A DNA stretch of 64,000 nt, taken from contig JAWSUS010000007.1 of the NCBI GenBank assembly GCA_033549025.1, positions 64,001-128,000 of the forward strand, read 5' to 3'. Positions within the stretch are counted from its first letter, which is position 1. Each line of letters opens with the position of its first letter. The notes beneath the pieces are model-generated. The model did not search any database and was not told the origin of the DNA. It was given only the letters and a program-made list of their open reading frames with translations. Shown piece after piece: positions 31,534 through 47,312 of the stretch. The position numbers and the translations under genes were made by a program. Source of the DNA: Desulfuromonadales bacterium (lineage in GTDB: Bacteria; Desulfobacterota; Desulfuromonadia; Desulfuromonadales; SZUA-540).

Positions 31534-31623
31534 GGTGGGCTGGCCGAGTGGTTGAAGGCGCTGGTCTTGAAAACCAGAAGCGATTAACGTCGCTCCGGGG
31601 TTCGAATCCCTGGCCCACCGCCA
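31534..31623 (+). tRNA. tRNA-Ser(UGA), intact and carried by the element
   Basis: Acceptor GGTGGGC/GCCCACC, anticodon stem CTGGT/ACCAG with TGA, long variable arm, GTTCGAATC, ends GCCA. Confidence 0.95.
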
Positions 31624-31633
31624 AAATAATAGT

Positions 31634-31674
31634 AAAAACGGGGACCTAGAGGATTCTGGGTCCCCGTTTTTTTT
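31634..31674 (+). terminator. Intrinsic terminator after the element's tRNA
   Basis: AAAAACGGGGACCTAGA..TCTGGGTCCCCG followed by T8. Confidence 0.85.
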
Positions 31675-31809
31675 GTCGTAACTCTCACATTCCCCTCTCC
31701 GCAAACCATAGTGCGCAGTAAAATAGCTGCGTCCTGTTGTGTTCCGCTAATCTTCCTATATACTGTCCCTCGAAAGTTACTGCGCTTTATTTCCTCGTCG
31801 GAGGGGTCT

Positions 31810-33267
31810 ATGAAAGCCGGCAGACGTTACAAGCACCTCGCACTGCTAAAAACGGCCAAGAACGGAAAACCAACGTTTGCGTTGCTGGCCGAAGATCAGG
31901 CCTTGTGTGACTTCTTCGATCATTGGGCATACCTGCTCGCCAAAAATAACAGCCCTAACACCGTCCGTGCCTACTCCTACGCAGTTGCAGATTTTCTCAA
32001 TTATATCGAAGAGATATCAATTCGGTTCGGCCCCCTCACCCGGGCCTTGCTTCGTGAGGCAATTGACAGCTATGAGAGCTACCTTGTTTTTGGTGAAGAC
32101 AGCGATGCTGAGATGGCGGCGGCGGCGGCCAAGGTGCTTGGCTCAAGAAGCTTGTCGGGAGGCTCCGTCGAGCAGCACTTTGCTGGTGTAAATCGATTTA
32201 TCGAGCAAAGCGAGAATCTTCGACAAAGCCTGCAATCTCTCGTAGGTACAGGTTTTTTGTCCGGACCCGCCAGCGCAGCGACAGCGTTGGTGGAGTATGG
32301 TTACGCCGACACGCCCGCCAAGGTTCAGGCAGCGATAAAGGGGAACAGTTGGCTGGCTGGGTGTATCAGCGGTGGTTACAAGAAGTTGGCGAAGAGGGGG
32401 TTGGGGAAAAAGGCCAAGGCGTCAGGCGTGGCTCACACAAATGAACACGGTGGCGACGATAAGACTTTTCCTTATGATCTCGCCGTCGCCACGATTAAAC
32501 AGGCCCCTTCTACTCGTGAAATGCTCTTGTGGTCTCACCTCTGCGCTACTGGATGTAGGGTGCATGAGGCTTTAACAACTCTAATCGATGACATAATCAT
32601 CGATATCAACGACCCAACCAACAATAGTGTTCGTATAGTCGACCCAGAAAAAAGGCGTAATGTGCTCTCTAGGTATCTGACCGAGGAGCAGATCAACATG
32701 CTTCCCCATAAAGGTAGACAGACAGAGACAACATATATGATTGAACCCTTTGCCTCAATGTTCTGGAAGTATCTCGATAAGTACATCCAAGAGGAGAGGG
32801 GTAAGGACAAAGGAAAAGGAAGGATTGTAACGCACAAGTTTCTTTATAGAAAACTAACCGACGGTGAGCCTTGCGTTAACTCCTACCAAACCCTTTGGGA
32901 GCGTTTCCATACTGTTTCCTTAAAGGTTACAGGGGAGTCTTACGGGTTTCACTCTTTAAGGCATATGTATGCCTACTATTTAGTGAACTTTGCCCCTAAT
33001 CCAAGCGGTGGCTTTGGTTTCGATTTGAAGACCGTTGGTGATTTACTTGGTCAAAAAAGTTTAAGTGCAACAAAAAGGTACGCAAGGAAAGACGCGCAAT
33101 TGCTTAGCATCGCCATAGGCGCTATGAATTACGAGAGGGATAGGAACCCCCACTTTTCTATTGCAAGCGCAAGACTATCTTTTCTTGAAAAGGAAGTGGA
33201 GAAGTTAAAGATGCAGATCGAGTACAATAATGCGGCCGGGGGGAAAGACATTGGTCAACTTAACTGA
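31810..33267 (+). CDS. Tyrosine recombinase
   Basis: TGCRVHE (R), HKGR (K), FHSLRH (HxxR), LGQ..ATKRY (Y); GGAGGGG RBS before ATG 31810. Confidence 0.88.
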   Translation: MKAGRRYKHLALLKTAKNGKPTFALLAEDQALCDFFDHWAYLLAKNNSPNTVRAYSYAVADFLNYIEEISIRFGPLTRALLREAIDSYESYLVFGEDSDAEMAAAAAKVLGSRSLSGGSVEQHFAGVNRFIEQSENLRQSLQSLVGTGFLSGPASAATALVEYGYADTPAKVQAAIKGNSWLAGCISGGYKKLAKRGLGKKAKASGVAHTNEHGGDDKTFPYDLAVATIKQAPSTREMLLWSHLCATGCRVHEALTTLIDDIIIDINDPTNNSVRIVDPEKRRNVLSRYLTEEQINMLPHKGRQTETTYMIEPFASMFWKYLDKYIQEERGKDKGKGRIVTHKFLYRKLTDGEPCVNSYQTLWERFHTVSLKVTGESYGFHSLRHMYAYYLVNFAPNPSGGFGFDLKTVGDLLGQKSLSATKRYARKDAQLLSIAIGAMNYERDRNPHFSIASARLSFLEKEVEKLKMQIEYNNAAGGKDIGQLN

Positions 33268-36200
33268 TCGCCCGATATGGAATGTAGACGATTCCGAGGT
33301 CGGGGTCAAAATAAGAAGAGCTGTAACCGAGGTTCATCGAATATGTAGAAGCATTATTCCCGTTGGCACAACCGGCAAACAATCAGCTATGGTGCCAACC
33401 TTAAAGGTCCTTGAATCGAAAGACCTTAGAACTATTGACACTTGGTCCATTGACAAGGCGAACAAGTTCATAGATAGGGCCGCACACACCAAGGACGTAT
33501 CCCCTCCAGGGGGGGTAGATGATATTTTTGGCGGAATCGCCAAGTGGGGCGCCACCCGTGGGTTTGGTACCTTCGCAAAGTTGGTGGTGATCCAATTGTG
33601 GATTGACGAAGTATTGATCGCCCCGTTGAATTACGGTGCGCCGTCAAACACAGACCATATACTGGATGCTTTGATCGCCAATGGTGAAAACAGCATCCTC
33701 GTTGATGTTCGCTCGGTGAATAAACTATCAAAGTTCGAGTATAGGGGGAGCGATAAGTTAGAGGATAGGAATAGGAGGGCCAATCATTGGTTTAGGCTGC
33801 TGCTGAATACCTCATTCTATAAGGTCGAGTCTTTAACCGAAGACGATATTAAAGTCCTTTTAAGGGCTGGTAGTGGCGTTAAAAGCTTGTTGCCGAGGTA
33901 TTACGTCCCCGACTTCCTTTTATCAATTACGGCCAAAAATGCAGAACTAAAGAAAACCGTCTCTGATCTGATTAGTGGCCATAAAGTGTCCGTTGCCGAA
34001 GCTTATAGTGCCGGTAGGGCGGAAAAGGCAACTCTGCCACCTCGGGTTAATAAAGGAGAATTAATTCCTAAGCTCTGTCTCGACTATTCAAGTGGATCGG
34101 ACCCGGACATATCGCTGGAAGATCTGGTTGGCGAGGTTGTTGGGACCATAAACCTTAGGAAGGTTTTCGGTGGCTCCCATGCGGATATGGGTCTGCCCAT
34201 CTACAAAGGGCTTCCAGATAAGGTAAGGGATTTTTGTCAGTTAATAAACACGACGTTTTCAAGCTTCATTAGGACGGCAGGGCAAATAAAAGGCGACAAT
34301 TATATCTTCGCCAAAAATATTATGATGTTTTACATATCGGTATGCCTGCCGAGGTTCTATCTGGATAGAGATGGGAGACTAGAAGAGTATCCAACTACGC
34401 TTAATGAATTCTCCTGTCCCTATTATGTTACAAGGGACTCCTTGTTGGACGATGTTCTCGATTATGACAAGAAGGCTCCAGACACGCTGATATCATTTGT
34501 GAACCTGTATTCAGACCTTCATGATTGGGTAAACGATACTCTCTATGCTCGTGTGCTGATACTGGAAAAGTATTTTCAGTATATAGTTGACAACAGAACA
34601 CTGATTCCGAACTCCGATAAAGTAACAAACACCTTTACTAAGGCCAATTATCCAAGAACAGCCAGGCGAACAGGAACGGCCAAGAAGCCAATACCAAGGA
34701 AATACTTCTCCACGTTCGTCGGATTATTATATACGCTTGAGTATTTGGTGACCCATCTAAACGCCATGGCCGATGGGCTTGCGCCCGGCTCAATTAACGG
34801 CAGTCTGCAATATGTGACCAGGGCCGAACTTGAAGAGCGGCATCTGTGGAGGGGGCTGTGGGGTAAGCCGGGGAGTATCGGCGGCCTGCTTGACCTGTCT
34901 TTATTGAACTACACGCCGATATATTTACACGGAGGCAAATATAGGCCGCTAAAAAAGTGTCACAGGTTCTACAGTATTTCAGAGTACGAACAGAAAGACG
35001 GTGTTCCTATCTCTTACGCAAGCCCTCACGAGATAAGAGCAACCATCCTGATGTGTGAAACAGGTATAAGACAAAAGCACCTACTATGGTTGGACGTCGA
35101 CCGGTATGACTGTTTTGTCGATAGAAGCCACGACCATGTACTATGCCCGTTGCTTGTAAATACAGACAAGGCCCATGATGAATGGACTGCTATCGTCAGC
35201 GCCAGGGTCATTAAAGTATGTGATCGACAAAGAGATTTTTACTTAAACTGTGGTGACCCGAGCTTTGACGAAAATATGTGGTACAGCGAAAGTGAAGGAG
35301 CCAAGTTCGGCAAGTTCAAACCGCTGTTCCGCCAGCCAAAGGCCGCAACCAGTTGGACGAACCATATAGCATTCCCCAAACTCCTCTGGACATTGCAGCA
35401 CATCATTCACGAGGATCTGAAGGAGTATGATGCTCCTGACCTTGTCATGCTTGCGTCCACCACTGGAAAAGGAGAGCGAACCGAAGTCATCGAATATACA
35501 GAAAAATCCCTGTCCGGATACAGGATTATCAGCAAGCACACCCCGCATGCGCTTCGGGCGGGCTTTGTGACAGAGGCCATCAGGTTTCTGCCCCCGTCGC
35601 TGATCGGTGAGTGTATGACCGGCCAAACGGAGTCCTTGGTCTGGTATTACACCGTCACCGACCCTAATGACTTCACGAGCCACCAGCAGTTGCTGGCCAA
35701 CTACCTATCCAAAAACGCAGAGGCAATATCACGAGGAGACGCTCCAGAGCTGGCCGCAACCGTGGCGAAGGTAAACAAAAAGCTGATGTCCGCTATTGAG
35801 GCCGACCCGGCCGCCGCAGTAGAAAAATATAAGCTTATGAGCCTCACCGGGATCTCGGAAGACAAGACGGGTCTGAAGCTGGTCCTAGCCAAAAAGCACA
35901 CGAAGCTGGCCTTTAACCCGTCTCATATATGCCCATTCGACAACAGGTGCCCCAAGGAGGTCTTCGAGGCGTACGGGCCGAATAGGCCGTGTGCTCTCTG
36001 TACGTATTCGATTCGAGGTGTCCCTCACTTGCCTGCGGTCAGCGCTTGCAAGAGCAAGAACTTTGAGCTGATGGGCGAATATCAACAAAAAATCATCGAA
36101 TACATTAAGCGGCCGAAGTCGGCCCAAAATGCAAGTGAGCTAGAAAAGCTCAACGATGAACATGACAATGCTATGCGAGAAGCAACGGCGCTAGAAGCGA

Positions 36201-36607
36201 TAGAACAGCAGCTCTATGCCCTGTCAGAGTCCGAAGACAGTAATGCCTACATTGTGCAAGAGAAGGATGCCCTAGTGGCACACTTTGAGAAGGTCGAACT
36301 TAACGAGGCAGAGCACCTTATAAAAAGGCTTGTCGACGTGCAGAACTTTCCAGATCTTGACAGTCCCACCATCCAACGGAAATTCGCCTATCTAAGAAAG
36401 AAGCTCCTCATTAATGATGGTGACTTGGCCGGTCTTTTAAGTGACTTCGACGGAGAAACAGAGGTTAAATTATTGACATCACAGTTGAAGAGCATGATGG
36501 ATGTGAAGAAACTTGGAGTAAAGGAGATATTTAAAATAGCCTCTTCAAATCCAAGGACTGAGCAAAACCTTTCATCCGGTTCTTCGATAAAGAATCTCTT
36601 GACCTAA
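33251..36607 (+). CDS. Very large (~1120 aa) tyrosine recombinase-like protein
   Basis: ETGIRQ (R), NTDK (K), TPHALRA (HxxR), TGQT..VWYY (Y), then Cys-rich HICPF..CP..PCALC; TTG start overlaps the upstream gene (start uncertain). Confidence 0.78.
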   Translation: MVNLTDRPIWNVDDSEVGVKIRRAVTEVHRICRSIIPVGTTGKQSAMVPTLKVLESKDLRTIDTWSIDKANKFIDRAAHTKDVSPPGGVDDIFGGIAKWGATRGFGTFAKLVVIQLWIDEVLIAPLNYGAPSNTDHILDALIANGENSILVDVRSVNKLSKFEYRGSDKLEDRNRRANHWFRLLLNTSFYKVESLTEDDIKVLLRAGSGVKSLLPRYYVPDFLLSITAKNAELKKTVSDLISGHKVSVAEAYSAGRAEKATLPPRVNKGELIPKLCLDYSSGSDPDISLEDLVGEVVGTINLRKVFGGSHADMGLPIYKGLPDKVRDFCQLINTTFSSFIRTAGQIKGDNYIFAKNIMMFYISVCLPRFYLDRDGRLEEYPTTLNEFSCPYYVTRDSLLDDVLDYDKKAPDTLISFVNLYSDLHDWVNDTLYARVLILEKYFQYIVDNRTLIPNSDKVTNTFTKANYPRTARRTGTAKKPIPRKYFSTFVGLLYTLEYLVTHLNAMADGLAPGSINGSLQYVTRAELEERHLWRGLWGKPGSIGGLLDLSLLNYTPIYLHGGKYRPLKKCHRFYSISEYEQKDGVPISYASPHEIRATILMCETGIRQKHLLWLDVDRYDCFVDRSHDHVLCPLLVNTDKAHDEWTAIVSARVIKVCDRQRDFYLNCGDPSFDENMWYSESEGAKFGKFKPLFRQPKAATSWTNHIAFPKLLWTLQHIIHEDLKEYDAPDLVMLASTTGKGERTEVIEYTEKSLSGYRIISKHTPHALRAGFVTEAIRFLPPSLIGECMTGQTESLVWYYTVTDPNDFTSHQQLLANYLSKNAEAISRGDAPELAATVAKVNKKLMSAIEADPAAAVEKYKLMSLTGISEDKTGLKLVLAKKHTKLAFNPSHICPFDNRCPKEVFEAYGPNRPCALCTYSIRGVPHLPAVSACKSKNFELMGEYQQKIIEYIKRPKSAQNASELEKLNDEHDNAMREATALEAIEQQLYALSESEDSNAYIVQEKDALVAHFEKVELNEAEHLIKRLVDVQNFPDLDSPTIQRKFAYLRKKLLINDGDLAGLLSDFDGETEVKLLTSQLKSMMDVKKLGVKEIFKIASSNPRTEQNLSSGSSIKNLLT

Positions 36608-36630
36608 AACAGCGTCTGGGGGGGTGTATT

Positions 36631-37275
36631 ATGGTGGCTAAGAAGAAGAGAACGTTTGATCCCTTTGAGGAGCATAGGGAAGGGAAGGTCAATAAAAGAC
36701 TTCGCCACGTAAGGACTTCCCTTTCGATTTTGAAGAATAGCAAATACAATAGCATGACAAAGCTCGCCGAGGCTGTTGCGGCGCTTGTTACCGAGTTCGA
36801 GTTGAGGGATGCGGGGGTTAATGAAAAGACCGATGAAATAAAGGGTTGCGACCCATCGGCGCTGATTCGGAGTGGCTCTAAGTATAGAGAGGCCATACAA
36901 GCAGGCTGGGAGATACGTCAGGGCGGTAGTGAAAAGGAAGGCGAGGGTGTTTCCGAGTTAGAGTCTCTAAAGATCAGGTGCGCAAACCTCGCCCACCATA
37001 ACGATCTGCTAGAAAGAAGGCTTGAGCATAAGGGTCTGACTGCACTGCTCGAGCAGCCTAATGCTGCGCTAGAGGAAAAGGTCAAGGATATTAGGGCCTT
37101 GCTTGACATTATCAACGGGGTGTTTGGGCAAGTGGCAGACTTGTTCACGACGGTACTGGAGGGGGATGAAGACTCTGAGCACCCCGAGGCGGGTCTGTAC
37201 GGGCCGCATGGCCTGGCTGTGGGAATTGAGGCGTTGAAGCGCCTTAAGGGGGCGCAAGATGGACAAAAAGATTAG
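36631..37275 (+). CDS. Element core protein with coiled coil, function unknown
   Basis: 214-aa ORF in operon with the recombinases; heptad-rich middle. Confidence 0.65.
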   Translation: MVAKKKRTFDPFEEHREGKVNKRLRHVRTSLSILKNSKYNSMTKLAEAVAALVTEFELRDAGVNEKTDEIKGCDPSALIRSGSKYREAIQAGWEIRQGGSEKEGEGVSELESLKIRCANLAHHNDLLERRLEHKGLTALLEQPNAALEEKVKDIRALLDIINGVFGQVADLFTTVLEGDEDSEHPEAGLYGPHGLAVGIEALKRLKGAQDGQKD

Positions 37276-37738
37276 TCCCCATGAGAAGGGCATCCTGAAC
37301 GCCAAGAACTACGCCAAGTACGTTAAGGGCCTGGAAGAAAACGGGAAGCAGTTTCCGGTTAATCAGTTTGGCGAGGTCAATAAGGAGGCTGTCGCTGCGG
37401 CCTGTGGCTTTAATCGTCAGGTCTTCAACCCAAAGAGTAACAAGAAGATGGCGGATCGCCTGGCGGCCGACGTAGATAGGATCGGGATTGAAGGTGAATA
37501 TATACCGCCACAAGCCCCGGGAGAGTCAGAAGGTGCACTGGCCAGGAGGGCAAAGAAAAGTGCGGAGACCGTTAGCAAGCTCAGGAAGGATCTGGCCATA
37601 GAGAAAGAAAAGGTCACGTCTCTTGAGGTGCAAATAAAAAAGCTCGAATACGAGCTTGATACGCTTAAACAGTCATCTGCCGAGCAGAAGAACAGCTTTG
37701 ACTTTATGGTTTCCACCGGCAGAAGGTTCACTCTATGA
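37259..37738 (+). CDS. Small HTH-like + coiled-coil protein, candidate recombination accessory factor
   Basis: VNKEAVAAACGFNRQVF HTH-like segment, C-terminal coiled coil, overlaps both neighbours. Confidence 0.65.
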   Translation: MDKKISPHEKGILNAKNYAKYVKGLEENGKQFPVNQFGEVNKEAVAAACGFNRQVFNPKSNKKMADRLAADVDRIGIEGEYIPPQAPGESEGALARRAKKSAETVSKLRKDLAIEKEKVTSLEVQIKKLEYELDTLKQSSAEQKNSFDFMVSTGRRFTL

Positions 37739-39909
37739 GAATCTCCGAAATCGTCGAAGTCAGAAATGTATGGCCTTCCCCGTTTGGTGGCGCCATGTTT
37801 AAGTGCGTAAAAGCCGGAGGAAGTCGACTGTTCTTATGCAAGGCAGGATACAACGTTCTTGCCAGGATACCCAAGGAGTCTGAGTTCTGGAAAATAACCG
37901 GAGATATGACCTACACCCAAGAAAATGGTGTCGTTTGTAATGTTATTTCGGCTGTGGTCACCGGCCTGCCATCAGACAAATATGTCGGCGGCCTGTTGAA
38001 AACCCATGATGCCTTCAGGGGTTTCGATTTCGGTCTAAAGAAGATCGACCGGCTCCTCGATGCTACCGCCGACTCCGACCTCGTTGATATGCTCAACAGT
38101 GGGGATTGGCAGTCCATCTCAAACACCGGGTTGAGCGAGAAGATATCTAAGCGGGTGTGCGAAGAGTGGGGCAAGCTGAAGGAGGAGAGGGATCTAGCTA
38201 CCTTCTTGCACGACCATCAGCTTGACAGTAGCTTGGCCTCCAAGGTCATCAAAATGTGCTCCCGCAACCCCATGGAGAGGCTAAAGAATAACCCCTTCTC
38301 CCTGCTCGCCTTGAGCAACGCTACAATCCGGAACCTGCAAGATATCGCAGGGATAGCCAGCAGGCTGGGCATTGACGAAAACGATGACCGGACTCTTGTT
38401 GGCCTCGTAGAGTTTGCCCTGTATGAGGCTCTGGAGGATGGGAGCACCATTGTCGAGGTCGACGCCCTGAGGGCCAGGATCTCCGAACTCAGCAAGCTGG
38501 TGGGCACTACCCTGCCACCAGACGCCGCCATCTGTGCAGCATTGAAGATCAAGGCCGTCTGTGTGTTTACGGAGGACGGCAAATACTTTATTCAGTTGAT
38601 CGGAGTTGCCTACATCGAACAAAGTGTCGAGAAAAAGCTTTCCTGGCTACAAAAACAGCCAATGCAGCTTCGACTGAAAGAGTTGTCTGGGGGCACCCTG
38701 ACTGAAAAGGTGAGCGCCTACAATAAGCGACTGCGTAACAGTGAGGGATATTCGCTTACAAACCAACAGTGTGATGCAGTTGAAATGGCTCTCTCTAACA
38801 GACTTTCCTTGCTGTCAGGTTTTGGTGGTACGGGTAAAACGACTGTTCTTAAAGCCATAGTTGAGCTTGCCGAAGAATTTGAAATACCAGTACATGTCTG
38901 TGCTTTAGCTGGAAAGGCGGCCGACAGAGCGCGGCAGTCAATCAACCGTGAAACCTTCACTATTCATGGGTTGATATACGAGATAATAAAATCCAACGGT
39001 AAGGTTAATAAGGGGTCAGATCCGCTCATTATCATTGATGAGTCCTCCATGGTCGACATTTCACTTGTCAGGAAATTCCTTTCTTCATTCGGCGATAGCC
39101 CATTTAAGGTTCTGCTGGTCGGAGATACTGCACAGTTGGCTCCAATTGGGTTTGGCTTGTTCTGGCACGAGATGGTTAAGTCGGACGTGCCGAAGGTTCA
39201 CTTGACCAAGGTCCATCGCCAGTTGGCAGGAAGCCCCCTGCATAATGCGGCAATGCATATCAGAGAGGGCCAAATTCACGCCCTGGAGAAGTATTCGGGC
39301 CAAGAGGAGGGTATCTACCTTCTCGGAAGCATCGGCGACCCCAGGGTGGCGATACGCGATCTCATGAGGGAGGTGGATGCGGTTACGCTTACTTCGTACT
39401 CCAGCGACCGAATCGCTGGCTCATCAAGCCAGCTAAACGCTTACCTGCAAGGCGAACTTAACTCCAAGAGAGGAGTAAGTATGGGGCTTGCCACTATAGC
39501 TTTAAAGACTGGCGATCCAGTTATTGCGACGATCAACAACCAGGCGCTGGGCATTTACAATGGTATGGCGGGCTTTGTTAAGTCCATCGTTATTGATGGC
39601 GACGGTACAATGGGCTGCAATATCAAGTTTGACGACAGATCAAGCGAGATATTACTTTCGAGGGACGAGTGTTTCGAGGTTGGTCTCGATCTGGGATATG
39701 CCATAACTATTCATAAATCCCAGGGCAGCGAATATGAAAGCTGTATTGTCTGCTTGAGTAAGAACCTTGAAAGAAGTGCTATATACACCGCTGTAACAAG
39801 GACAAAGAAACTCTGCATTATTGTAGGCACTCAGCAGCAATATAATGATGCCGTCCGGGGGGAGCCGCGATACGAGCAGATCCAGTGTGGGTTTAGGTGC
39901 GCAGCCTAG
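37735..39909 (+). CDS. RecD/RecD2-like SF1B helicase
   Basis: GFGGTGKT, IIDESSMVD, GDTAQLAPIG, YAITIHKSQGSEY, YTAVTR. Confidence 0.9.
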   Translation: MRISEIVEVRNVWPSPFGGAMFKCVKAGGSRLFLCKAGYNVLARIPKESEFWKITGDMTYTQENGVVCNVISAVVTGLPSDKYVGGLLKTHDAFRGFDFGLKKIDRLLDATADSDLVDMLNSGDWQSISNTGLSEKISKRVCEEWGKLKEERDLATFLHDHQLDSSLASKVIKMCSRNPMERLKNNPFSLLALSNATIRNLQDIAGIASRLGIDENDDRTLVGLVEFALYEALEDGSTIVEVDALRARISELSKLVGTTLPPDAAICAALKIKAVCVFTEDGKYFIQLIGVAYIEQSVEKKLSWLQKQPMQLRLKELSGGTLTEKVSAYNKRLRNSEGYSLTNQQCDAVEMALSNRLSLLSGFGGTGKTTVLKAIVELAEEFEIPVHVCALAGKAADRARQSINRETFTIHGLIYEIIKSNGKVNKGSDPLIIIDESSMVDISLVRKFLSSFGDSPFKVLLVGDTAQLAPIGFGLFWHEMVKSDVPKVHLTKVHRQLAGSPLHNAAMHIREGQIHALEKYSGQEEGIYLLGSIGDPRVAIRDLMREVDAVTLTSYSSDRIAGSSSQLNAYLQGELNSKRGVSMGLATIALKTGDPVIATINNQALGIYNGMAGFVKSIVIDGDGTMGCNIKFDDRSSEILLSRDECFEVGLDLGYAITIHKSQGSEYESCIVCLSKNLERSAIYTAVTRTKKLCIIVGTQQQYNDAVRGEPRYEQIQCGFRCAA

Positions 39910-39986
39910 GTCGCCCGGCATCGCTGCCGCCGGCGGTGGCGGCTGGAAAACCAACATTGAGGCATTGACTCGGAAGAGGCACAGAG

Positions 39987-40646
39987 ATGTATCCAATCAA
40001 GTCGATCGTCTATTGGCTAGTTGTAGTTTTTGGCGTCTGTTTTTCTTTGAGTGGGTGCGCTGGTCTTATCCATACTGAAACAACACGTATAAAGGTTGAA
40101 GGTCTCATTGTTACTGACAGGGAGCATTTAACTGAGTGGTCGGAGTTTTTCAGTTCCCCAGATTCCAGGGTAAAAATTATTTCGGAAGAGGATAGCCTAG
40201 TACAAGCCTCGGACTTGGAAGTTGAGAATAAATTCTATCATGTCTCTTATTTGCCATACTACCAAGGGTTTTGCGAAGATTTCCGAAACGAAGGTCTTGT
40301 TGAAAAAGTTCAACGGGAATTTAAAAAGAAGAATGAAGGTATTATTGTCGAAAGCGCTAGTGTAGACGAAAAAACATTACAGAATTGCAAGGATGGACTT
40401 CAGAGCAGCGTAATTTGGTCGACCAACAACGACTCACACGTAGCCGAATTGCCCTTGACTATATATATGACTCTGGACTCCCTAGTAGAGAGTAAATACA
40501 AATATGAGTGGGCTGGAACGCGATGTGCTGATGGATGGATATCCTCTTCGACCGGAAGAGGAGCCTGCTCCTGGCACGGAGGGGTAGCTGGATCTGTGTA
40601 TAGGAAAAGATACCTAGTTGATAAGAATAGCCCATTATTCCCCTAG
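39987..40646 (+). CDS. Lipoprotein with C-terminal DUF3761-like Cys/His motif
   Basis: Lipobox LSGC; C-terminal CADGWISSSTGRGACSWHGGV. Confidence 0.7.
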   Translation: MYPIKSIVYWLVVVFGVCFSLSGCAGLIHTETTRIKVEGLIVTDREHLTEWSEFFSSPDSRVKIISEEDSLVQASDLEVENKFYHVSYLPYYQGFCEDFRNEGLVEKVQREFKKKNEGIIVESASVDEKTLQNCKDGLQSSVIWSTNNDSHVAELPLTIYMTLDSLVESKYKYEWAGTRCADGWISSSTGRGACSWHGGVAGSVYRKRYLVDKNSPLFP

Positions 40647-40669
40647 CCCTATCGACCGCGCGGTCTACG

Positions 40670-40861
40670 TTGAGGACATTCCTTCCCGTCTCCTCACGAT
40701 ACAACCCGTTCTATGGCCATACCCTTAAAGGCGCACTGAAGCAAATCAAACGCCTACTTGGCTGGGAAGCCGAAAATGCCTACGTTGACAAGGGCAACCC
40801 GAAGCAACTGGGCAAGACCAATGTTCATCTGAACATGGAACTTTATTCGATTGTGGCCTGA
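40670..40861 (+). pseudogene. IS5-family transposase fragment
   Basis: NPFYGHTL..ALKQ..LLG..AYVDKG resembles the NPYDGHTL..VDRG segment of IS5-type DDE transposases. Confidence 0.5.
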
Positions 40862-40880
40862 AGGCGAAATTTCGAGTTTT

Positions 40881-41369
40881 TCAGGGACGACTATTGTAAA
40901 AGACGACGTCTAAATCGAGATAAGAACAAAAAAGGAAAAAGGGGCTCCCGCTTATTCTCCAAGCGCGTGGACGCCATTGGTTAACATTGCCATACAAAAC
41001 AAGCATTGACGGGTTGTCGACGTAATTATCTGGAAACCTAGCTATATTTCTCAGGGCTTTTTTGTCTTTTCCGCTGAGGATTCCAGGCCCCGATGGGTGC
41101 GTATGCCAATCTCCCAAGTAAAAAATCTGCCCATCTTTTTCATCATAAATCCGCCCCATCTCTTCTCTCTGATAGTCTTCATCGGGGCTAAAAAAGCATT
41201 CCCCATGCACAGCATTAAGGCCTGGCCCGACCATGCCTGTGGCAACGATCTCTGTATTGTCTCTTGAGAAGTAACCGACTAAAAGCCCCCCTGTTTCCAG
41301 GGGGGCTTTATCGTTCGCCTCATCAAGCATCTCTTGATAAACGTTATTATTTATCCAGATCCTTTTCAT
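40881..41369 (-). CDS. JAB/MPN+ (JAMM) metallo-isopeptidase
   Basis: ETGGLLVG, YLGDWHTHP..SGKD (E..HxH..S..D); ATGA overlap with the upstream E2-E1 gene. Confidence 0.9.
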   Translation of the reverse strand: MKRIWINNNVYQEMLDEANDKAPLETGGLLVGYFSRDNTEIVATGMVGPGLNAVHGECFFSPDEDYQREEMGRIYDEKDGQIFYLGDWHTHPSGPGILSGKDKKALRNIARFPDNYVDNPSMLVLYGNVNQWRPRAWRISGSPFFLFCSYLDLDVVFYNSRP

Positions 41370-43144
41370 TTACCGCACCACGGGTTGCTACAATCAGGAT
41401 GCTTTTCCAGCTCAAAAGACTCCCACTTTGGGAAGATTGCTTTACCATTTTCACGCAAATGCAGAATCCCAACATCATTATCCATTGCTGGATAGTCGCC
41501 AGAAGAACCATCGCACATTATCGATATTGCCATGCGAACACCAGCCAGAGAAATTTCCTGAACATCAAAACTTGTTGCCTTGAATGTTAAATCTCCGCAC
41601 CCTACCGGCTGAAGTTCATCTCCCTCTGGGTCGAAAGTAGGTTGAGATATTTTGCCTTCCTCTAGCGCCCTTAGGTAGCAGAGGAAGCATCCTTTACCAG
41701 ACAAAATCCTAACAACACTCCCGCCCCATCCTCCAGGACGTGAAGATACAGCAACATACGGGATACTATACTTTTTTGCCATATCCGCGATGAGATGGTT
41801 TATTCCAAGCTCAGCCGTTGCGTCATAAATAAGATCTGCCCCATCTAGCAACCTTTTCAGGCCTTCAAACTGGTCATAATCTGGAGTAACCTGACCAAGA
41901 ATTATTCTGAAATCATCATTACCTGCATCCGGATAATGATCCGTTCCAATTCGTGTTAAAGGATAATTTTCACGAATCTTTTCAGACAGGAATTGGACCT
42001 TGCCCGATGTTATTGCTGACATTCCTTCAGGCCATCGGCAAACTGTTCCGGAACTTACATAGTCTCCATCCCACAATCTCAGTTCAGCAACTCCTGCACG
42101 TGCGAACTCCAATGCGCTCGGAGCACCCACACAACCCAAGCCAATAACGGCGACAGTCTTTTCTCGTAATGGCCTTAACTCAGGGACCCGTTGAAAAAGA
42201 TCATTTTCACCTATTGCTTCCGTTGTTATTACCCAAGTCGCTACCTCGATTTTTTTCTTCCCGCCCTCTTTGTACATTTTTGTCTGATACGCCAGAAACA
42301 ACCAACCATCCCTGTATCCACCACCGGGGGCTTCTTCCTTGAAACAGAAGCCATGAACTCCGCTTCTGCCCTTATTAATTTCATTATCAATCACACGATA
42401 GGCTACCGGGTTTATAGCCCTTATACTTTCACAAAACGTAACACCAGAGCTTAGCCTTGGCACCTTATCAATTCGTGACCACCTGATAGTATCCACACTA
42501 TTTGTTTTAGCGGTTGCATACGCTCCAATCGCAGGGTTTACGGAGCAGTCGCCTACCACGCTCTTGTCACTCTTCTGTATTGAGTGAACCCATGCTTTAA
42601 GCGGTTTATGAGGAGAGATTTTTCTTATGGGGTGGGTTGAAAATATTCTCAAAAGCCCCTCCCTGACTTTTTCAGGCAAGGACCAAGAGCTGTCCATCAA
42701 AAATATTTGGTTCTTGAATGGAGCAAAATAAGCACTTTGCGGCTCCGCTTGATGATCCTCTGTATCTAAACGCGAGTCATCAAAACCACGAACTGCCGCC
42801 CTCTCCCATTCCGGGAGCATTTCAACAATATGCTTAGCTGCCGTCCTGCAAGGTTGCCACTCTCCGGTACCTCTTTTCAGAAGGCATATTTCGCCGGTAT
42901 GAGGGTTATAGTGCCGCAGACCACCCCCCAGGCCCAAGCAATTTACTACCGGTCTGAAGTATGGATAAAGCTGAGGATACTCGATCCAGCCATTTTCACC
43001 CTGGCCGAATATTGTGAGTTTTATCCGAACAACAGCAAGGCCTCTAGCAAATGATTCATCGTCCTTAACTGGTTGCAAACCAGATTCTTGGAGTGCGGTG
43101 AGTTCTTCGTCTAAAACGGCAGGGTACTCATCCCACCACCGCAT
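41366..43144 (-). CDS. Prokaryotic E2-E1(ThiF) fusion protein
   Basis: N-terminal E2-like YPQLYPYFRP..HYNP..GEICL; C-terminal ThiF VAVIGLGCVG, WDGD, DATA, CFLC, candidate catalytic PVGC, terminal CxxxxC. Confidence 0.88.
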   Translation of the reverse strand: MRWWDEYPAVLDEELTALQESGLQPVKDDESFARGLAVVRIKLTIFGQGENGWIEYPQLYPYFRPVVNCLGLGGGLRHYNPHTGEICLLKRGTGEWQPCRTAAKHIVEMLPEWERAAVRGFDDSRLDTEDHQAEPQSAYFAPFKNQIFLMDSSWSLPEKVREGLLRIFSTHPIRKISPHKPLKAWVHSIQKSDKSVVGDCSVNPAIGAYATAKTNSVDTIRWSRIDKVPRLSSGVTFCESIRAINPVAYRVIDNEINKGRSGVHGFCFKEEAPGGGYRDGWLFLAYQTKMYKEGGKKKIEVATWVITTEAIGENDLFQRVPELRPLREKTVAVIGLGCVGAPSALEFARAGVAELRLWDGDYVSSGTVCRWPEGMSAITSGKVQFLSEKIRENYPLTRIGTDHYPDAGNDDFRIILGQVTPDYDQFEGLKRLLDGADLIYDATAELGINHLIADMAKKYSIPYVAVSSRPGGWGGSVVRILSGKGCFLCYLRALEEGKISQPTFDPEGDELQPVGCGDLTFKATSFDVQEISLAGVRMAISIMCDGSSGDYPAMDNDVGILHLRENGKAIFPKWESFELEKHPDCSNPWCGK

Positions 43145-43296
43145 TAGCCTACCTGTCTTCCTCCACCAGGATTCGGACGATCGGCTGGACGATTCCCGGG
43201 ATTTTCTGGAGGGGTAGCTGGAGTTGCAGGATTTCCTGGCCCATTAGGGTCTGCCGGTGTTGCAGGATTTCCTTGGCCTTTATCATTGTTTGCCAT
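43144..43296 (-). CDS. Unannotated 50-aa Pro/Gly/Asn-rich peptide ending in Gly, candidate protein modifier
   Basis: Hand translation MANNDKGQGNPATPADPNGPGNPATPATPPENPGNRPADRPNPGGGRQVG*; GAGGT RBS; TAATG stop/start overlap with E2-E1; below the ORF-track size cut-off. Confidence 0.82.
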   Translation of the reverse strand: MANNDKGQGNPATPADPNGPGNPATPATPPENPGNRPADRPNPGGGRQVG

Positions 43297-43353
43297 AACC
43301 GAACCTCATCTTTTCGTTAGAGTACAACATATTAATCAAATCCAACAACACCC

Positions 43354-43382
43354 AAGTTATCACTCCAAAACGAGACCGTCAA
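43354..43382 (-). promoter_or_regulatory. Sigma70-type promoter for the peptide-E2E1-JAB operon
   Basis: Minus strand TTGACG-17 bp-TAACTT with extended -10 TGn. Confidence 0.62.
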
Positions 43383-43388
43383 CCAAAA

Positions 43389-43436
43389 ACACAATATAAA
43401 AGTATGAAGCGAAATCCAAACCACTATATATTGTGG
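43389..43436. promoter_or_regulatory. Tandem NrdR-like boxes
   Basis: CCACTATATATTGTGG (43421-43436) and weaker ACACAATATAAAAGTA (43389-43404), starts 32 bp apart. Confidence 0.6.
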
Positions 43437-43452
43437 CATATATCGAATTAGG

Positions 43453-44336
43453 TGTTAGAAATCTGAGCGTTGTTTACACTTTTTCGCCATAGAAATGATC
43501 GAGTAGCTTTTCGTATGGCGTCATCCCGTCAATGCCTTTGTAGGGCTTGACCGTGTTGTAGAAGTTAGTGAAGCGCAGCAGGCTGATCTGGCGACTCTTT
43601 CGATCACCGAACGTTTCCTTCTGGTGCCACATCTCCATAAGCGTGAGGATCGCGCGTTCTGCTTTGCCATTGGTCTGAGGTCGATTGATCGAGTGAATTT
43701 TTGGCCAATACCGAGTTCAGCGCAGGTTTTTACAAAAGCGTGTTCGCTGACTCCTCTGAATTCTTTGCCGTTGTCTGAGTAGGTGTATTCGATGGTGTAA
43801 AGACTTTCATCGGCAACCTGGCGCAAAAAGAGTTCAGCACTGTATTGGGTCTTGTCCGGGAATATCCCAGCGTAAAGTTCCCGGGAAAAATCGTCAATGG
43901 CGACGAACAGATACTCTCTGGGAAGTGACTGATCCTCGCCTTTAATCAACGGGAGACGTTTGCTTTCAAAATGGACCAACTCTCCCGGATATGATTTGTT
44001 GTAACGCCTGGCTTCACGTTTGCGCTTTTCTTCAAGCTCGCGTTCAACCTTGGCTAGACGCTTTAGCCCATACTTGAGGCTGCGGAAACGATTATTGACG
44101 CTGCGTCTCGGAACGAATTCCTGCTTCCTGGCCCGGGCCAGTGTCTTGTAAATCGTTGGCCGTGAGACGCGATACATTTCTGCCAGGCGACTGACCTTGT
44201 ATTCGCCTGTCTGCCATAACTGCCAAATCTTCTGGCGGTCATGGGGTGTTAACCGTATGTGTTTGTGCATGACCATGTTTGCAAAATCCTCCTTCACCAA
44301 TATCGGATTCTGTAAACAATGCGTCAATTTCTTACA
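43453..44336 (-). mobile_element. IS481-family insertion sequence (884 bp)
   Basis: TGT..ACA ends, 26-bp imperfect IRs (TGTTAGAAATCTGAGCGTTGTTTACA / TGTAAGAAATTGACGCATTGTTTACA), flanking direct repeat AATTAGG. Confidence 0.88.
43474..44276 (-). pseudogene. IS481-family transposase, frameshifted
   Basis: HTH, AIDDFSR, SDNGKEF; RPQTNGKAER..YN..TPYE continues in another frame after about 43690. Confidence 0.85.
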
Positions 44337-44791
44337 AATTAGGTATTAAAATGATTTATGCTTAATTGCCCGTCTTAATGTTTACCCCAACACAATCCAA
44401 TAGCTAGATTACTTATTTTGGCGTGTTTTTACGTTTTGGGTTGGGATAAGGGTTAAGTGTAACGGGTAAAACGAGAAAGTTATCATACAAAATTGAAGCT
44501 GTATGATATGTGTATCTATTGATTGAATATCAAAAACTATTTTAGTCGTCCCTGAAAAATGGTAAGAGACTGAAATTAAGTATATATTTCCTGTTTATTA
44601 TTGATAAAATCACCAGAAAACAGAGTTCATGCCTTCGCAGCTTTGTTCGTTGAGTTGGGGAATTGTTGAAATAATGGGCCGCTGTTTCTGCCAAGGCTCT
44701 GGTCAGCGCTTTTTATCCCTGGCGTTACCTCTGCTTTCAAGGAGAGCGATGTTCTGCCTTAGTCACGGTTGTGGTGTAAAAGGAGAGCTAA

Positions 44792-45946
44792 ATGGAAATG
44801 CTTAAATATTATCTGGGGGGACGTGAGCAGGCGTTTATAAAACATGCCCTGCTTAAGGCATATTTGGAAAAACTGTTCATGATAATCGGGCAGCGACAGA
44901 GGTGCATTTGTTATGTGGATTGCTTCTCAGGACCCTGGGAGGAAAGCGCAGAGAACCTCATGGATACATCCATAGGTATCTCGCTTGATATAATGGCAAA
45001 GTGCCGTAAAGCCTTGGCTGCAATGAGAAACGAAGTGAAGTTCCGTGCGCTTTATATAGAAAAAACAAGGAAGTCATATGATAAACTTCAGGATTTCCTA
45101 AAACAAAGCAAGGAACTAGGGGTGGAGACTAGAGCCATAAGAGGAGAGTTCCACAATAATCTCAATGAAATTATTGACTGGTGCGGAAGCAAAGACTTTG
45201 TCTTCTTTTTTGTTGATCCAAAGGGCTATGCAAATGTAATTGAACCACAAACACTTGAGCCGCTTCTACATAGAAAAAACTCAGAGATACTAATAAACTT
45301 TATGTATGATCATATTAATCGATTTGTCGAATCAAAATCAAATAGGAATTTAATTGTTGATATATTCGGAGAGGTACCTGTAGTTGGTGGCCTTGAACCA
45401 AAGAAGAGAGAAGAATACCTTCTTGAATTATATAGACGAAGGCTCAAGAGTGTTATGTCCGAAGTTGGCGGGGTGCCTCGATTCGCATATGTAAGCGTGG
45501 TAGACACAGAGAAGAGTAAAACAAAGTACGAAATGGTGTACCTGACTAGGCATGCATTAGGCATATTGAAGTTTTTAGAGGTATCTGAACCTTTGGAGAT
45601 AATACAAAAGCAAGTTAAACAGAAAGCCAAAGAGCATCGATCAAAGCAGCCGTCGTTGTTCTCCTTCGAGGAGATTCCCGAAGTGAACGAGGGGGTTAGC
45701 ATTGAAGAAGTGAAACATTTTTGGCTGAGAAAATTGAGCACTGTCCCTGAGCCTTTTGGCTATGATAGGATGGCTGACATGCATGAAGAGACAGGCTGGT
45801 TGCTAGGTGATTTTCAGCGTGCCTTCTCGGAACTGCTCAAAGAAGGCAAAGTGCAAAATATTGACATGAGTAAGCCTCGTCGCTCAAGGCCTATCCACTT
45901 TGAGGAGAACCGAGGTGAAGGCGAGCGCTTGAGAAAGCTGGTATGA
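44792..45946 (+). CDS. Three-Cys-motif partner protein (TcmP-like)
   Basis: KHALLKAYL, YVDCFSGP, FFFVDPKG, EILINFM; coupled to a DUF5131 gene. Confidence 0.78.
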   Translation: MEMLKYYLGGREQAFIKHALLKAYLEKLFMIIGQRQRCICYVDCFSGPWEESAENLMDTSIGISLDIMAKCRKALAAMRNEVKFRALYIEKTRKSYDKLQDFLKQSKELGVETRAIRGEFHNNLNEIIDWCGSKDFVFFFVDPKGYANVIEPQTLEPLLHRKNSEILINFMYDHINRFVESKSNRNLIVDIFGEVPVVGGLEPKKREEYLLELYRRRLKSVMSEVGGVPRFAYVSVVDTEKSKTKYEMVYLTRHALGILKFLEVSEPLEIIQKQVKQKAKEHRSKQPSLFSFEEIPEVNEGVSIEEVKHFWLRKLSTVPEPFGYDRMADMHEETGWLLGDFQRAFSELLKEGKVQNIDMSKPRRSRPIHFEENRGEGERLRKLV

Positions 45947-46683
45947 GTACAAAGTCAAAGATCGAATGGACCGAGCAGACATGGAACCCTGCGGTGGGTT
46001 GCAGCAAGGTTTCCCCCGGCTGCACAAACTGTTATGCCGAGGTGATGGCAAAACGCCTCCAGGCAATGAAGGTAAACGGCTATCAGAATGGATTCGAACT
46101 GACCACGTTGCCGAAACGGCTGGAGGAGCCGCTTATGCGCCAGCGTTCAACAGTTTTTTTTGTCAACTCGATGAGCGACCTGTTCCATGAGGAGATACCC
46201 TTCGACTATATTGATAGAGTTTTCGAAGTGATAGCGAAAACTCCGCGCCATACATACCAAGTCCTAACAAAGCGTGCCGAACGCATGGCCACCTATTTTG
46301 CAGAGCGTAAGACACCGCCGAACGTTTGGCTTGGTGTGACCGTGGAAGACCGTAAGCATGGTCTTCCACGCATTGATCACTTACGGCAGATCCAAGCCTG
46401 CATACGGTTTCTCTCTATGGAGCCGCTACTGGAAGATCTTGGCCCGGTTGACCTGACTGACATCCAATGGGTTATCGTTGGAGGCGAGTCGGGACCGAAG
46501 GCAAGGCCAATGAGGCCCGAATGGCCCAAGAGTATTCAGCGCCAGTGTCAAAAGCAAGGAGCTGCTTTTTTCTTCAAGCAGTGGGGTGGATGGGGTCCAG
46601 ATGGTATTAAGCGGGCGAAGAAAAAAAATGGTCGCATTCTTGACGGCAGAACATGGGATGAAACTCCGGCAATGTTCGGATAG
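45943..46683 (+). CDS. DUF5131 (phage Gp37/Gp68) family protein
   Basis: IEWT..TWNP..GCSKVSPGCTNCYA, FVNSMSDLFH, WVIVGGESG, FFFKQWG. Confidence 0.88.
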   Translation: MSTKSKIEWTEQTWNPAVGCSKVSPGCTNCYAEVMAKRLQAMKVNGYQNGFELTTLPKRLEEPLMRQRSTVFFVNSMSDLFHEEIPFDYIDRVFEVIAKTPRHTYQVLTKRAERMATYFAERKTPPNVWLGVTVEDRKHGLPRIDHLRQIQACIRFLSMEPLLEDLGPVDLTDIQWVIVGGESGPKARPMRPEWPKSIQRQCQKQGAAFFFKQWGGWGPDGIKRAKKKNGRILDGRTWDETPAMFG

Positions 46684-46812
46684 CCCGCACTCTCTCCCTT
46701 CTGCCATGTGCCTTCCCTTAGCTCTTCCCGCTCCAGCGGCCGAGTCTCACTTGCCCAAGGAGTCGAGGCGCGCCCGAGAAGAGTGAGCACAAAGAAAACC
46801 AGCCAAATAGAG

Positions 46813-46866
46813 CCGATACAAAAGCCCCTTGGAGCTGAGGTTGTTCCAAGGGGGCTTTTGTGTCGG
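46813..46866. terminator. Long hairpin, probably a bidirectional terminator
   Basis: CCGATACAAAAGCCCCTTGGAGC / GTTCCAAGGGGGCTTTTGTGTCGG. Confidence 0.7.
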
Positions 46867-46999
46867 GCCCGCCCCTACGTGGCGAGGCGAGTATCTTTGC
46901 GAAGCTCAACTAGGTTCGATAGCAGAGCCTTTTTACAATGCGCAGTTAAGTGCGCATTGTAGGGGCCGCACTCCGCCCCATTGCCACCTTAAAAACGGA

Positions 47000-47029
47000 T
47001 TGACATTAGCAGTGCATTTCAATTAGTAT
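47000..47029 (+). promoter_or_regulatory. Outward-facing promoter at the right end of the element
   Basis: TTGACA-18 bp-TAGTAT. Confidence 0.55.
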
Positions 47030-47124
47030 TGCCACCGTCCACGGAACATCGTGGACGCTCTAGTAGGCGAGCCGTTTCTCTAGGCGTCAGGCTTACTTAC
47101 ATACGGTTGGGAAGTGGGATCACC

Positions 47125-47139
47125 CTGAGCCTTATATAA
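47125..47139. repeat. Right terminal inverted repeat CTGAGCCTTATATAA
   Basis: Pairs with 31470-31484; abuts the second GGGTTC. Confidence 0.82.
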
Positions 47140-47165
47140 GGGTTCGAATCCTACCTCCTCCGCCA
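47140..47165 (+). pseudogene. 3' fragment of the split host tRNA-Ser(UGA)
   Basis: GGGTTCGAATCCTACCTCCTCCGCCA; CTCCTCC pairs with GGAGGAG at 31404 and CCTAC with GTGGG. Confidence 0.93.
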
Positions 47166-47216
47166 AATTTAAAGCATAAGCGCACGTTTTACATATCCAT
47201 AGTAAGTATCCGCAAC

Positions 47217-47312
<96 letters not shown>

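Follow-up and report, generated by a model that had tools for sequence, protein, structure and literature searches.

A conserved proline-rich small open reading frame in front of Cap2-like E2-E1 and JAB genes as the source of a candidate unfolded peptide modifier

The locus considered here lies in a 64,000-nucleotide stretch of DNA from a Desulfuromonadales bacterium (GenBank assembly GCA_033549025.1, contig JAWSUS010000007.1, positions 64,001 to 128,000 of the forward strand; hereafter the window), in which three chained open reading frames (ORFs) of 50, 592 and 162 codons, joined by overlapping stop and start signals, are found on the minus strand (Table 1). The first encodes a 50-residue peptide, the candidate for a conjugated modifier, the second a Cap2-like fusion of an E2 domain, a linker and a ThiF-type E1 domain, and the third a Cap3-like JAB/JAMM metallopeptidase. 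A first-pass annotation had proposed the 50-codon ORF, which is present with the sequence quoted there, as well as both overlaps, which can be read directly: the TAA stop of the peptide gene and the ATG of the E2-E1 gene have one base in common (TAATG), and the ATG of the JAB gene overlaps the TGA of the E2-E1 gene (ATGA). The ribosome-binding site that it placed before the peptide ORF is likewise seen as a GAGG 11 to 8 nt before the ATG, and GGAG, GAGG or AGGA stands at the equivalent position in 21 of 24 loci (window included). The promoter that it placed there was not borne out, as a consensus scan of the 156 nt from the peptide ATG to an upstream insertion sequence (IS) element returned no sigma-70-like site at threshold and only a sub-threshold TTGACG-17 nt-TAACTT can be picked out by eye.

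In order to establish whether the small ORF is a gene, relatives of the E2-E1 protein were collected by an alignment-based scan, which returned relatives where a single-protein query of genome contigs had returned none, and the DNA 5' of each was read. A Pro-rich ORF precedes the E2-E1 gene in 35 of the 35 related loci examined, at enzyme identities down to about 25-30%; a search of homologous loci for just such an ORF, with a conserved terminal Gly motif, had been suggested beforehand and turned out positive throughout. The genome collection gave eight loci, and in all seven with upstream DNA a Pro-rich ORF ends at the E2-E1 start. Among the 27 metagenome loci, 20 include the enzyme N-terminus and upstream DNA and all 20 carry the ORF, four of them with the same peptide as another locus; seven (L015, L018, L022, L027, L030, L032 and L035), incomplete at their ends, were left out of the count. 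Among 401 genomes surveyed in the phylum to which the window belongs, two carriers were found, the window's own and a distant relative (E 7.8e-49) in which the small ORF is also present (1/1), while the plasmid collection held 13 matching records and the ORF was found in 7/7 of those examined, the plasmid carriers including pNGR234a of Sinorhizobium fredii, whose enzyme is 28% identical to that of the window. At all 20 loci that could be placed by rule, -7 to +3 nt separate the E2-E1 start from the last base of the peptide stop.

The substitution pattern points in the same direction. When the 11 closest peptides are aligned by codon, 585, 408 and 1839 differences are counted at positions 1, 2 and 3, 21 of 22 invariant residues are written with more than one codon, and amino-acid identity reaches 0.71 in the peptide frame vs 0.28 in the other two frames. 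The peptides are 62-84% identical to that of the window and the enzymes 38-63%, and hence the peptide is the better conserved of the two. Because it recurs in 35 of 35 loci and displays a coding substitution pattern, the small ORF is beyond chance and, as judged from these alignments, is a protein-coding gene under purifying selection; its 50-residue product finds no family match in Pfam, PADLOC or NCBIfam. These data also bear on the alternative that the small ORF is a cis-acting leader in which slow, EF-P-dependent Pro codons and the stop/start overlap set the amount of E2-E1. PP and PPP runs slow ribosomes, many of the peptides contain them (PPHPPHPP, for example), the stop/start overlap is universal, and the conjugation that we favour as an explanation is itself a deduction. 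Yet selection acts on the whole amino-acid sequence, non-Pro residues included, with A12, A15, N32, G44, G46, R47, V49 and G50 invariant, conservation is strongest in a Gly-ended tail of the kind bound by E1 enzymes, and the window peptide has a single PP pair and would stall ribosomes weakly; were the ORF a leader, moreover, E2-E1 and JAB would not be expected to lack any substrate in 35 loci. We regard this alternative as improbable.

The 37 distinct peptides (that of the window, 31 from the loci and five called proteins) are 31-61 residues long, two over-long gene calls aside, with a proline share of 17-49% (19-49% minus these two calls) and hydrophobic residues nearly absent. The window peptide, with 24% Pro, had been described as Gly-ended and devoid of aromatic residues and of a hydrophobic core, and this holds: after Met1 it contains no F, W, Y, L, I, M or C and one Val. 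Its composition and the low model confidence (predicted local distance difference test, pLDDT, of 38-50 in the co-fold described below) fit disorder, and a search of the ESM Atlas with the peptide gave no usable match. All 37 peptides carry [R/K]-x-[V/Y]-[G/A] at or close to the C-terminus; 28 end at the Gly, eight have two to five more residues (AC, GC, QQ, RACL, SVIKS) and one ends at Ala. Where the enzyme is 41-53% identical to that of the window the tail reads G-[GP]-G-R-x-V-G, and where it is about 30-36% identical the tail is mostly R-P-V-G; since close and distant enzymes have different tails, peptide and enzyme vary together.

In the R-P-V-G subfamily (L006, L024, L029, L031, L042 and others), C-terminal halves such as ...PPKPPHPRPVG resemble cores of the PRPPHPRL type, which occur in ribosome-binding proline-rich antimicrobial peptides of insects. 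The likeness may be no more than common composition. A profile of the peptide searched against longer proteins gave four matches, all low-complexity PATPATP repeats and none ending in the motif, which is weak evidence that the tail is not borne by any larger protein. The tail resembles ubiquitin-type precursors, and it also resembles the ...KTGRFA tail of the Enterobacter cloacae cGAS, which is adenylated by Cap2 (bioRxiv 10.1101/2022.03.31.486616).

The 592-residue protein matches Pfam ThiF (E 8.9e-14) and 32 PADLOC E1-E2 models (best 2.2e-22), and its AlphaFold (AF2) model, with a mean pLDDT of 79.6, has Cap2 of E. cloacae at Foldseek rank 1 (7to3_A, E 8.6e-22 over 638 columns at 13% identity); sequence similarity to Cap2 is limited to the Rossmann part (E 2.6e-8). 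The C-terminal part of about 280 residues aligns with UBA5 (Z 25.8, root-mean-square deviation 2.7 Å over 251 residues), MoeB (Z 24.2), ThiF (Z 23.8) and MccB (Z about 22, model residues 312-592). Since the VIA-align alignment of the whole model covered mainly residues 309-592, the E2 domain was folded on its own: the first 150 residues reach a pLDDT of 85.2, and all of the Foldseek matches listed (ranks to 50) are of E2, UFC1 or UEV type, the best E among them being 5.3e-3, with TM-scores of 0.54-0.57. The E2 motif reads H78-Y-N-P-x4-C87 and is present in 20 loci, with H78, C87 and L88 invariant in 19 sequences. Pfam Prok-E2_B reaches one of the 26 members of the close family (E 0.014), and distant relatives have this domain precomputed.

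Conservation over 26 homologues covers H78 and C87 (HxNP...C), the Gly-rich loop 335-343 (GLGCVGAPS), D359, D361, R370, K382 and D441 of the E1 domain, the Zn-type Cys pairs C486/C489 and C585/C590, and C516, the candidate E1 catalytic Cys, which lies in a low-confidence loop (residues 509-522). The roles of the E1 residues are presumed by analogy with MoeB, ThiF and Cap2. By the same analogy we infer that C87 and C516 are catalytic; they are the E2 (EICL) and E1 (PVGC) cysteines that had been picked out at the start, and both proved invariant. In the accessible text on Cap2 a disordered loop is described beside the E1 cysteine, which the loop around C516 resembles (bioRxiv 10.1101/2022.03.31.486616). 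For the JAB protein, Prok-JAB (2.7e-12) and PADLOC JAB (best model 7e-26) both give matches, and its JAMM residues are intact, namely E25 and H89-T-H91-x7-S99-x2-D102 (motif HTHPSGPGILSGKD); the JAMM motif is found in the window and at 18 related loci, while at L001 a Pfam JAB match stands in its place. The NCBIfam Cap3 equivalog scores 37.7 bits on it vs a cut-off of 200. Pfam, PADLOC, the fold matches and the intact motifs thus agree with the identities first given to the E2-E1(ThiF) fusion and to the JAB peptidase. The enzyme family, with 797 representative clusters at E<=1e-30, is sizeable but sparse.

The fold of the E1 domain brings up a second alternative, in which the locus is akin to those for ribosomally made, post-translationally modified peptides: the E1 domain would adenylate the peptide C-terminus non-conjugatively, as in the MccB/MccA pair, and JAB would process the product to a free bioactive peptide. 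The alignments of the E1 domain with MccB and PaaA do come close to those with ubiquitin-type E1s, what would be acted on is a short peptide made by the ribosome, and some family members look like proline-rich antimicrobial peptides. The N-terminal domain, however, is an E2 fold with the invariant HxNP...C and not a peptide clamp, the whole protein is closest to Cap2 in Foldseek, genes for export, immunity or tailoring are not conserved among the 148 flanking ORFs, and the regulators and neighbours are of defence-island type. A free bioactive product appears quite improbable to us.

[quoted passage not shown] None of the 148 ORFs flanking it in 23 non-duplicate loci matches a CD-NTase family at E<=1e-5, and the window genome (100% complete by marker genes), which holds a single copy of the E2-E1 enzyme, has no SMODS/CD-NTase match in a search with the one family PF18144. 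Nor is there a fourth gene conserved among the flanks of the 23 loci or a cyclic-nucleotide effector there, the flanks varying by locus. Lacking a CD-NTase in the flanks, a PF18144 match in the genome and any further conserved gene, the module is neither a CBASS operon nor the remnant of one. Decay of a type II CBASS operon through loss of CD-NTase and effector, leaving the small ORF as a chance or relic reading frame, could be argued from the Cap2- and Cap3-like enzymes and from the IS element just upstream in the window, but the same CD-NTase-free layout of three genes is found again at 35 loci, whose records name at least eight phyla-level groups, the catalytic motifs are all intact and the ORF evolves as a coding sequence; such a history is barely conceivable.

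At many loci the surroundings of the module are those of mobile or defensive DNA. A divergent helix-turn-helix (HTH) and Peptidase_M78 regulator of the CapH/CapP kind, fused, paired or partly seen at a contig end, accompanies it in 13 of 23 loci and a WYL regulator in two, so that either type is found in 15 of 23; the neighbours include GmrSD, HamA, HEPN, SIR2-TPR, type I restriction, HipA, conjugation and recombinase genes. Just 5' of the peptide gene, seven of the 23 loci carry a DUF2188 gene (three confirmed by Pfam, four by likeness) whose product has a conserved Lys-rich tail, D-P-x-P-P-x-D-[KR]-K. In six of the seven an HTH or HTH/M78 regulator gene is also present, L006 having a DUF4325-winged HTH protein instead. 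Burroughs and Aravind, in J Bacteriol in 2020, are said to have linked DUF2188 to defence. CapH/CapP regulators occur on CBASS and other defence operons, some of them with DUF2188, according to the accessible part of Lau et al. (bioRxiv 10.1101/2022.04.27.489752), and this description suggests that DUF2188 belongs to the regulatory cassette. It could be either a part of that cassette or a lysine-bearing target.

This last possibility is relevant to a further alternative, namely that the peptide is a regulator or substrate mimic which binds E2-E1 or JAB, the true substrate being a host or phage protein encoded elsewhere. The module comes without a target or effector gene, the co-fold hints weakly at binding, and the DUF2188 proteins offer a Lys-rich tail at 7/23 loci. 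A mimic, on the other hand, would need neither a free terminal Gly, found in 28 of 37 peptides, nor precursor-like extensions, and the operons of the known relatives Cap2, Bil and Bub each contain the gene for the substrate, as far as the accessible texts go (bioRxiv 10.1101/2022.03.31.486616; 10.1101/2023.09.26.559546; PMC11601596). We consider a mimic to be distinctly improbable.

Based on the conserved ORF, the Cap2 architecture, both cysteines and the intact JAMM motif, which together speak for the tagging by a Gly-ended disordered peptide put forward in the first-pass annotation, we hypothesize that the module probably encodes a fold-less peptide modifier whose terminal Gly is the site of activation, which travels by way of E1 and E2 to a target, and which JAB trims or takes off; the four alternatives discussed in this text together take about a quarter of the probability. 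The modifier would be a ribosomally made, unfolded, Pro-rich peptide, and neither a beta-grasp protein nor the tail of an enzyme. The E1 domain would bind the conserved tail [R/K]-x-[V/Y]-G and adenylate the terminal Gly with ATP, the peptide would then form a thioester on C516, in a flexible crossover loop, pass to C87 of the E2 domain, and be joined to a target amine, the conceivable acceptors being a lysine, an N-terminus and perhaps a non-protein amine. JAB would trim precursors with residues past the Gly and cut conjugates, and a stiff Pro-rich tag of about 5 kDa may alter or block the tagged protein. Judging from its context, the module would be carried by mobile elements as an accessory system that stress or phage induces, and it would most likely serve defence.

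A co-fold of enzyme and peptide scored 0.32, the best of three controls 0.00, with a partner pLDDT of at least 38. The mark for such scores is reached by 116 of 157 solved complexes and by 2 of 215 mismatched pairs, and at 0.60 or under lie 18 of the 157 solved complexes and both passing mismatches. Read in this light, the co-fold gives weak support to a predicted pairing of enzyme and peptide.

Several observations weigh against conjugation of the peptide. The co-fold is weak, with no contacts given (runs agreeing in at least 0% of contacts) and one of three runs at 0.01. Nine of the 37 peptides have no free terminal Gly, and five of the extended ones owe their two extra residues to a 7-nt overlap with the E2-E1 start; since the extra residues come partly from this overlap, trimming of precursors by JAB is an assumption. 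Three of the 37 lack lysine, and lysine-linked chains therefore cannot be general. No target gene and no effector gene is conserved at the loci, and within the phylum the module is confined to 2 of 401 genomes, the window's own counted. Adenylation, thioester and isopeptide formation, removal by JAB, the target and an antiviral effect are all steps that we infer by analogy. That the module is antiviral cargo of a mobile element, as first suggested, agrees with the regulators at 15 of 23 loci and with the defence and mobile neighbours; this support is indirect, what points to defence being association, and the antiviral part of the claim stays conjectural. As a system the module is not represented by any PADLOC model, and no relative was confirmed in viral contigs. 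In the window itself the IS element stands 157 nt upstream, an adjacent regulator is missing and no promoter reaches the scan threshold, as a result of which this copy may be poorly expressed or expressed from the IS element.

Peptides of this kind have been largely passed over in gene calling. When 5.8 billion protein clusters were searched with a profile, five unnamed peptide proteins came back, and the peptide stands in the gene table of one of seven plasmid records (Hymenobacter), which is a lower bound given the incomplete PLSDB table. Ten enzyme calls with 50-60 extra N-terminal residues were read, of which none is a Pro-rich in-frame fusion and at least five are Arg/Ser/Thr-rich out-of-frame readings over the peptide ORF; in a Sphingobium plasmid, likewise, the annotated enzyme start is stretched over the peptide ORF in another frame. 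Stretched E2-E1 starts of this kind thus hide the peptide ORF and produce false Arg/Ser/Thr-rich N-termini, and the finding lays bare a systematic annotation gap in which a tiny peptide ORF is skipped or overrun by enzyme calls.

A full-text literature search returned no paper on a Pro-rich or disordered peptide with E2-E1 and JAB, subscription papers and preprint supplements being outside its reach. The machinery is known and the class of modifier is new. A broader claim, on which we are evenly divided, is that of a widespread 'peptide-ubiquitin' of 31-61 residues, attached by Cap2-like E2-E1 and matured or erased by JAB, which would be a stand-alone, damage- or phage-induced system spread over about 800 enzyme clusters (50% identity) and hidden by gene callers. 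Conjugation through E1 and E2 is usually seen as the chemistry of folded beta-grasp modifiers, for which in CBASS the floppy tail of an enzyme can substitute; if the present reading is correct, a free, encoded, unfolded peptide would be the minimal form of the cascade, which would need a tail only and no beta-grasp fold. It would also amount to a new bacterial post-translational modification, with a Q-V-G-type trypsin remnant on targets in the subfamily of the window, and to a compact three-part tagging tool. The same reading explains what 'substrate-less' E2-E1 and JAB pairs on plasmids and islands, that of pNGR234a included, may act on.

The features of the window and of related loci are collected in Table 1. 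The IS element has imperfect inverted repeats and an rve/HTH transposase split over two frames, and it occupies the place where relatives have regulators or DUF2188; lying on the same strand as the operon, it could drive or disturb operon transcription. A gene pair for TcmP (three-Cys-motif partner) and DUF5131 follows on the plus strand and matches the PADLOC candidate PDC-M30A/B (E 1e-12 and 1e-112), which by sequence makes it a second candidate defence module beside the peptide operon. These and the operon lie inside a likely genomic island with a tRNA-Ser gene on either side, in which two tyrosine-recombinase-like ORFs, two coiled-coil ORFs and a RecD-like helicase are also found. Convergent with the JAB gene is a lipoprotein-like ORF with a weak DUF3761 match, and in L021 a DUF3761 protein (E 9e-19) comes directly after JAB on the opposite strand; this adjacency, seen at two loci, may be chance.

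Table 1. Positions of the operon, its candidate signals and sites, and other features (window coordinates unless a locus is named)
Feature	Position	Strand	Basis or remark
Peptide gene, 50 aa, ending ...PGGGRQVG; candidate conjugated modifier	43144..43296 (stop included)	-	ORF and sequence
E2-linker-E1 fusion, 592 aa, Cap2-like	41366..43144	-	Pfam ThiF, PADLOC E1-E2, AF2 model, Foldseek
E2 (UBC-fold) domain, about residues 1-118	42791..43144	-	Domain model, Foldseek, invariant motif
C87 codon (TGC)	42884-42886	-	Putative E2 catalytic Cys
E1 adenylation domain, about residues 310-592	41369..42217	-	Invariant columns, fold matches
C516 codon (TGC)	41597-41599	-	Candidate E1 catalytic Cys
JAB/JAMM metallopeptidase, 162 aa, Cap3-like	40881..41369	-	Prok-JAB, PADLOC JAB, JAMM motif
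JAMM segment H89 to D102	41064-41105	-	
Shine-Dalgarno-like GAGG, 11 to 8 nt before peptide ATG	43304..43307	-	Read in sequence
Possible weak promoter TTGACG-17 nt-TAACTT	43355..43382	-	By eye; below scan threshold
IS element, 26-nt inverted repeats, split rve transposase, 157 nt upstream of peptide ATG	43453..44336	-	
Transposase frames of IS element	43521-44327; 43474-43638		
E2-E1 starts stretched 50-60 codons over peptide ORF, other frame	L045 2025-2211 and 2080-3981; P0134, P0167, P0181, P0182, P0205		
DUF2188 protein, about 77-96 aa, before peptide gene	L001 5580-5813; L009 4541-4816; L024 788-1045; four more loci		
Likely genomic island	31534-47310		
tRNA-Ser(tga), putative island start	31534-31623		
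tRNA-Ser(gct), putative far side of island	47217-47310		
Tyrosine-recombinase-like ORFs	31711-33267; 33230-36607		Second: 1125 aa, no Pfam match
RecD-like helicase	37735-39909		
Lipoprotein-like ORF	39987-40646	+	Weak DUF3761 match
TcmP and DUF5131 gene pair	44792-46683	+	PADLOC candidate
DUF3761 protein after JAB	L021 7286-7711	-	

Among the known systems, Bil (type I/II BilABCD) and Bub ('6E') have in common with the module an E1, an E2, a deconjugating peptidase and an operon-encoded, Gly-ended modifier, and the available texts report an antiviral role for Bil (bioRxiv 10.1101/2023.09.26.559546; PMC11601596). In contrast to the module, these systems use folded beta-grasp ubiquitin-like proteins, an E2 of its own and an E1 that is multidomain or fused to a peptidase, with oxyester chemistry in Bub, whereas here the modifier has no hydrophobic core and the E2 is fused to an E1 with a single adenylation domain. 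No Bil beta-grasp gene was found at the module, where the sole conserved small ORF is the Pro-rich peptide with no Pfam match, nor were the separate E2 (BilB/CEHH) and the E1 with inactive and active adenylation domains, in place of which there is one E2-ThiF polypeptide. An assignment to type '6c' of Iyer was rejected, 6C being, in the accessible text of the Chambers preprint, type II Bil with a CEHH-E2, a ubiquitin-like protein and a multidomain E1 (bioRxiv 10.1101/2023.09.26.559546). In Iyer et al. 2006 (PMC1779556), section 14 and Table 1 list pNGR234a among the E2-E1/JAB operons and make no mention of a small ORF.

The 6A-MBL systems, in which an E2-E1-JAB triple fusion goes with a metallo-beta-lactamase (MBL), have related E2-E1 and JAB parts, as indicated by partial matches to NCBIfam NF058523 (6A; 40.4 and 67.8 bits vs a cut-off of 320), and an association with CapH/CapP is reported for them in the accessible text of Lau et al. 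(bioRxiv 10.1101/2022.04.27.489752). In the module, however, JAB is a separate gene and no MBL family occurs among the flanks; since a beta-grasp gene, a separate E2 and an MBL are all missing, Bil and 6A-MBL were both rejected as its identity. The MccB/MccA (microcin C7) and PaaA systems also direct an E1-like adenylating domain at a short ribosomal peptide, but they have a peptide-clamp N-domain, no E2 Cys relay and no JAB, and their product is a free antibiotic. Pup, the modifier joined by PafA, is likewise small and is intrinsically disordered, as the window peptide may be. It carries a C-terminal GGQ/GGE and is joined through the Glu side chain by the glutamine-synthetase-like PafA, with no E1/E2, whereas the window peptide ends in RQVG beside E1/E2 and JAB, with no PafA or Dop.

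A further system close to the module is type II CBASS with Cap2 and Cap3, whose substrate is the disordered C-terminal tail of a CD-NTase; it has the same E2-linker-E1 fold, two catalytic cysteines and adjacent JAMM peptidase, an unfolded substrate tail with a small residue at its end, CapH/CapP or WYL regulators at many loci and a mobile or defence context. The module differs from it in having neither CD-NTase nor cyclic-nucleotide effector, and in that nothing but the tail would be the substrate, as a free peptide, about 31-61 residues long, with its own start codon. If the broader claim is correct, it may also show how the 'cGASylation' of CBASS and peptide tagging are related, either through a CD-NTase tail that was set free or, as may also be the case, through the reverse. 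By analogy, the layout corresponds to a Cap2/Cap3 scheme in which only the tail of the CD-NTase is left.

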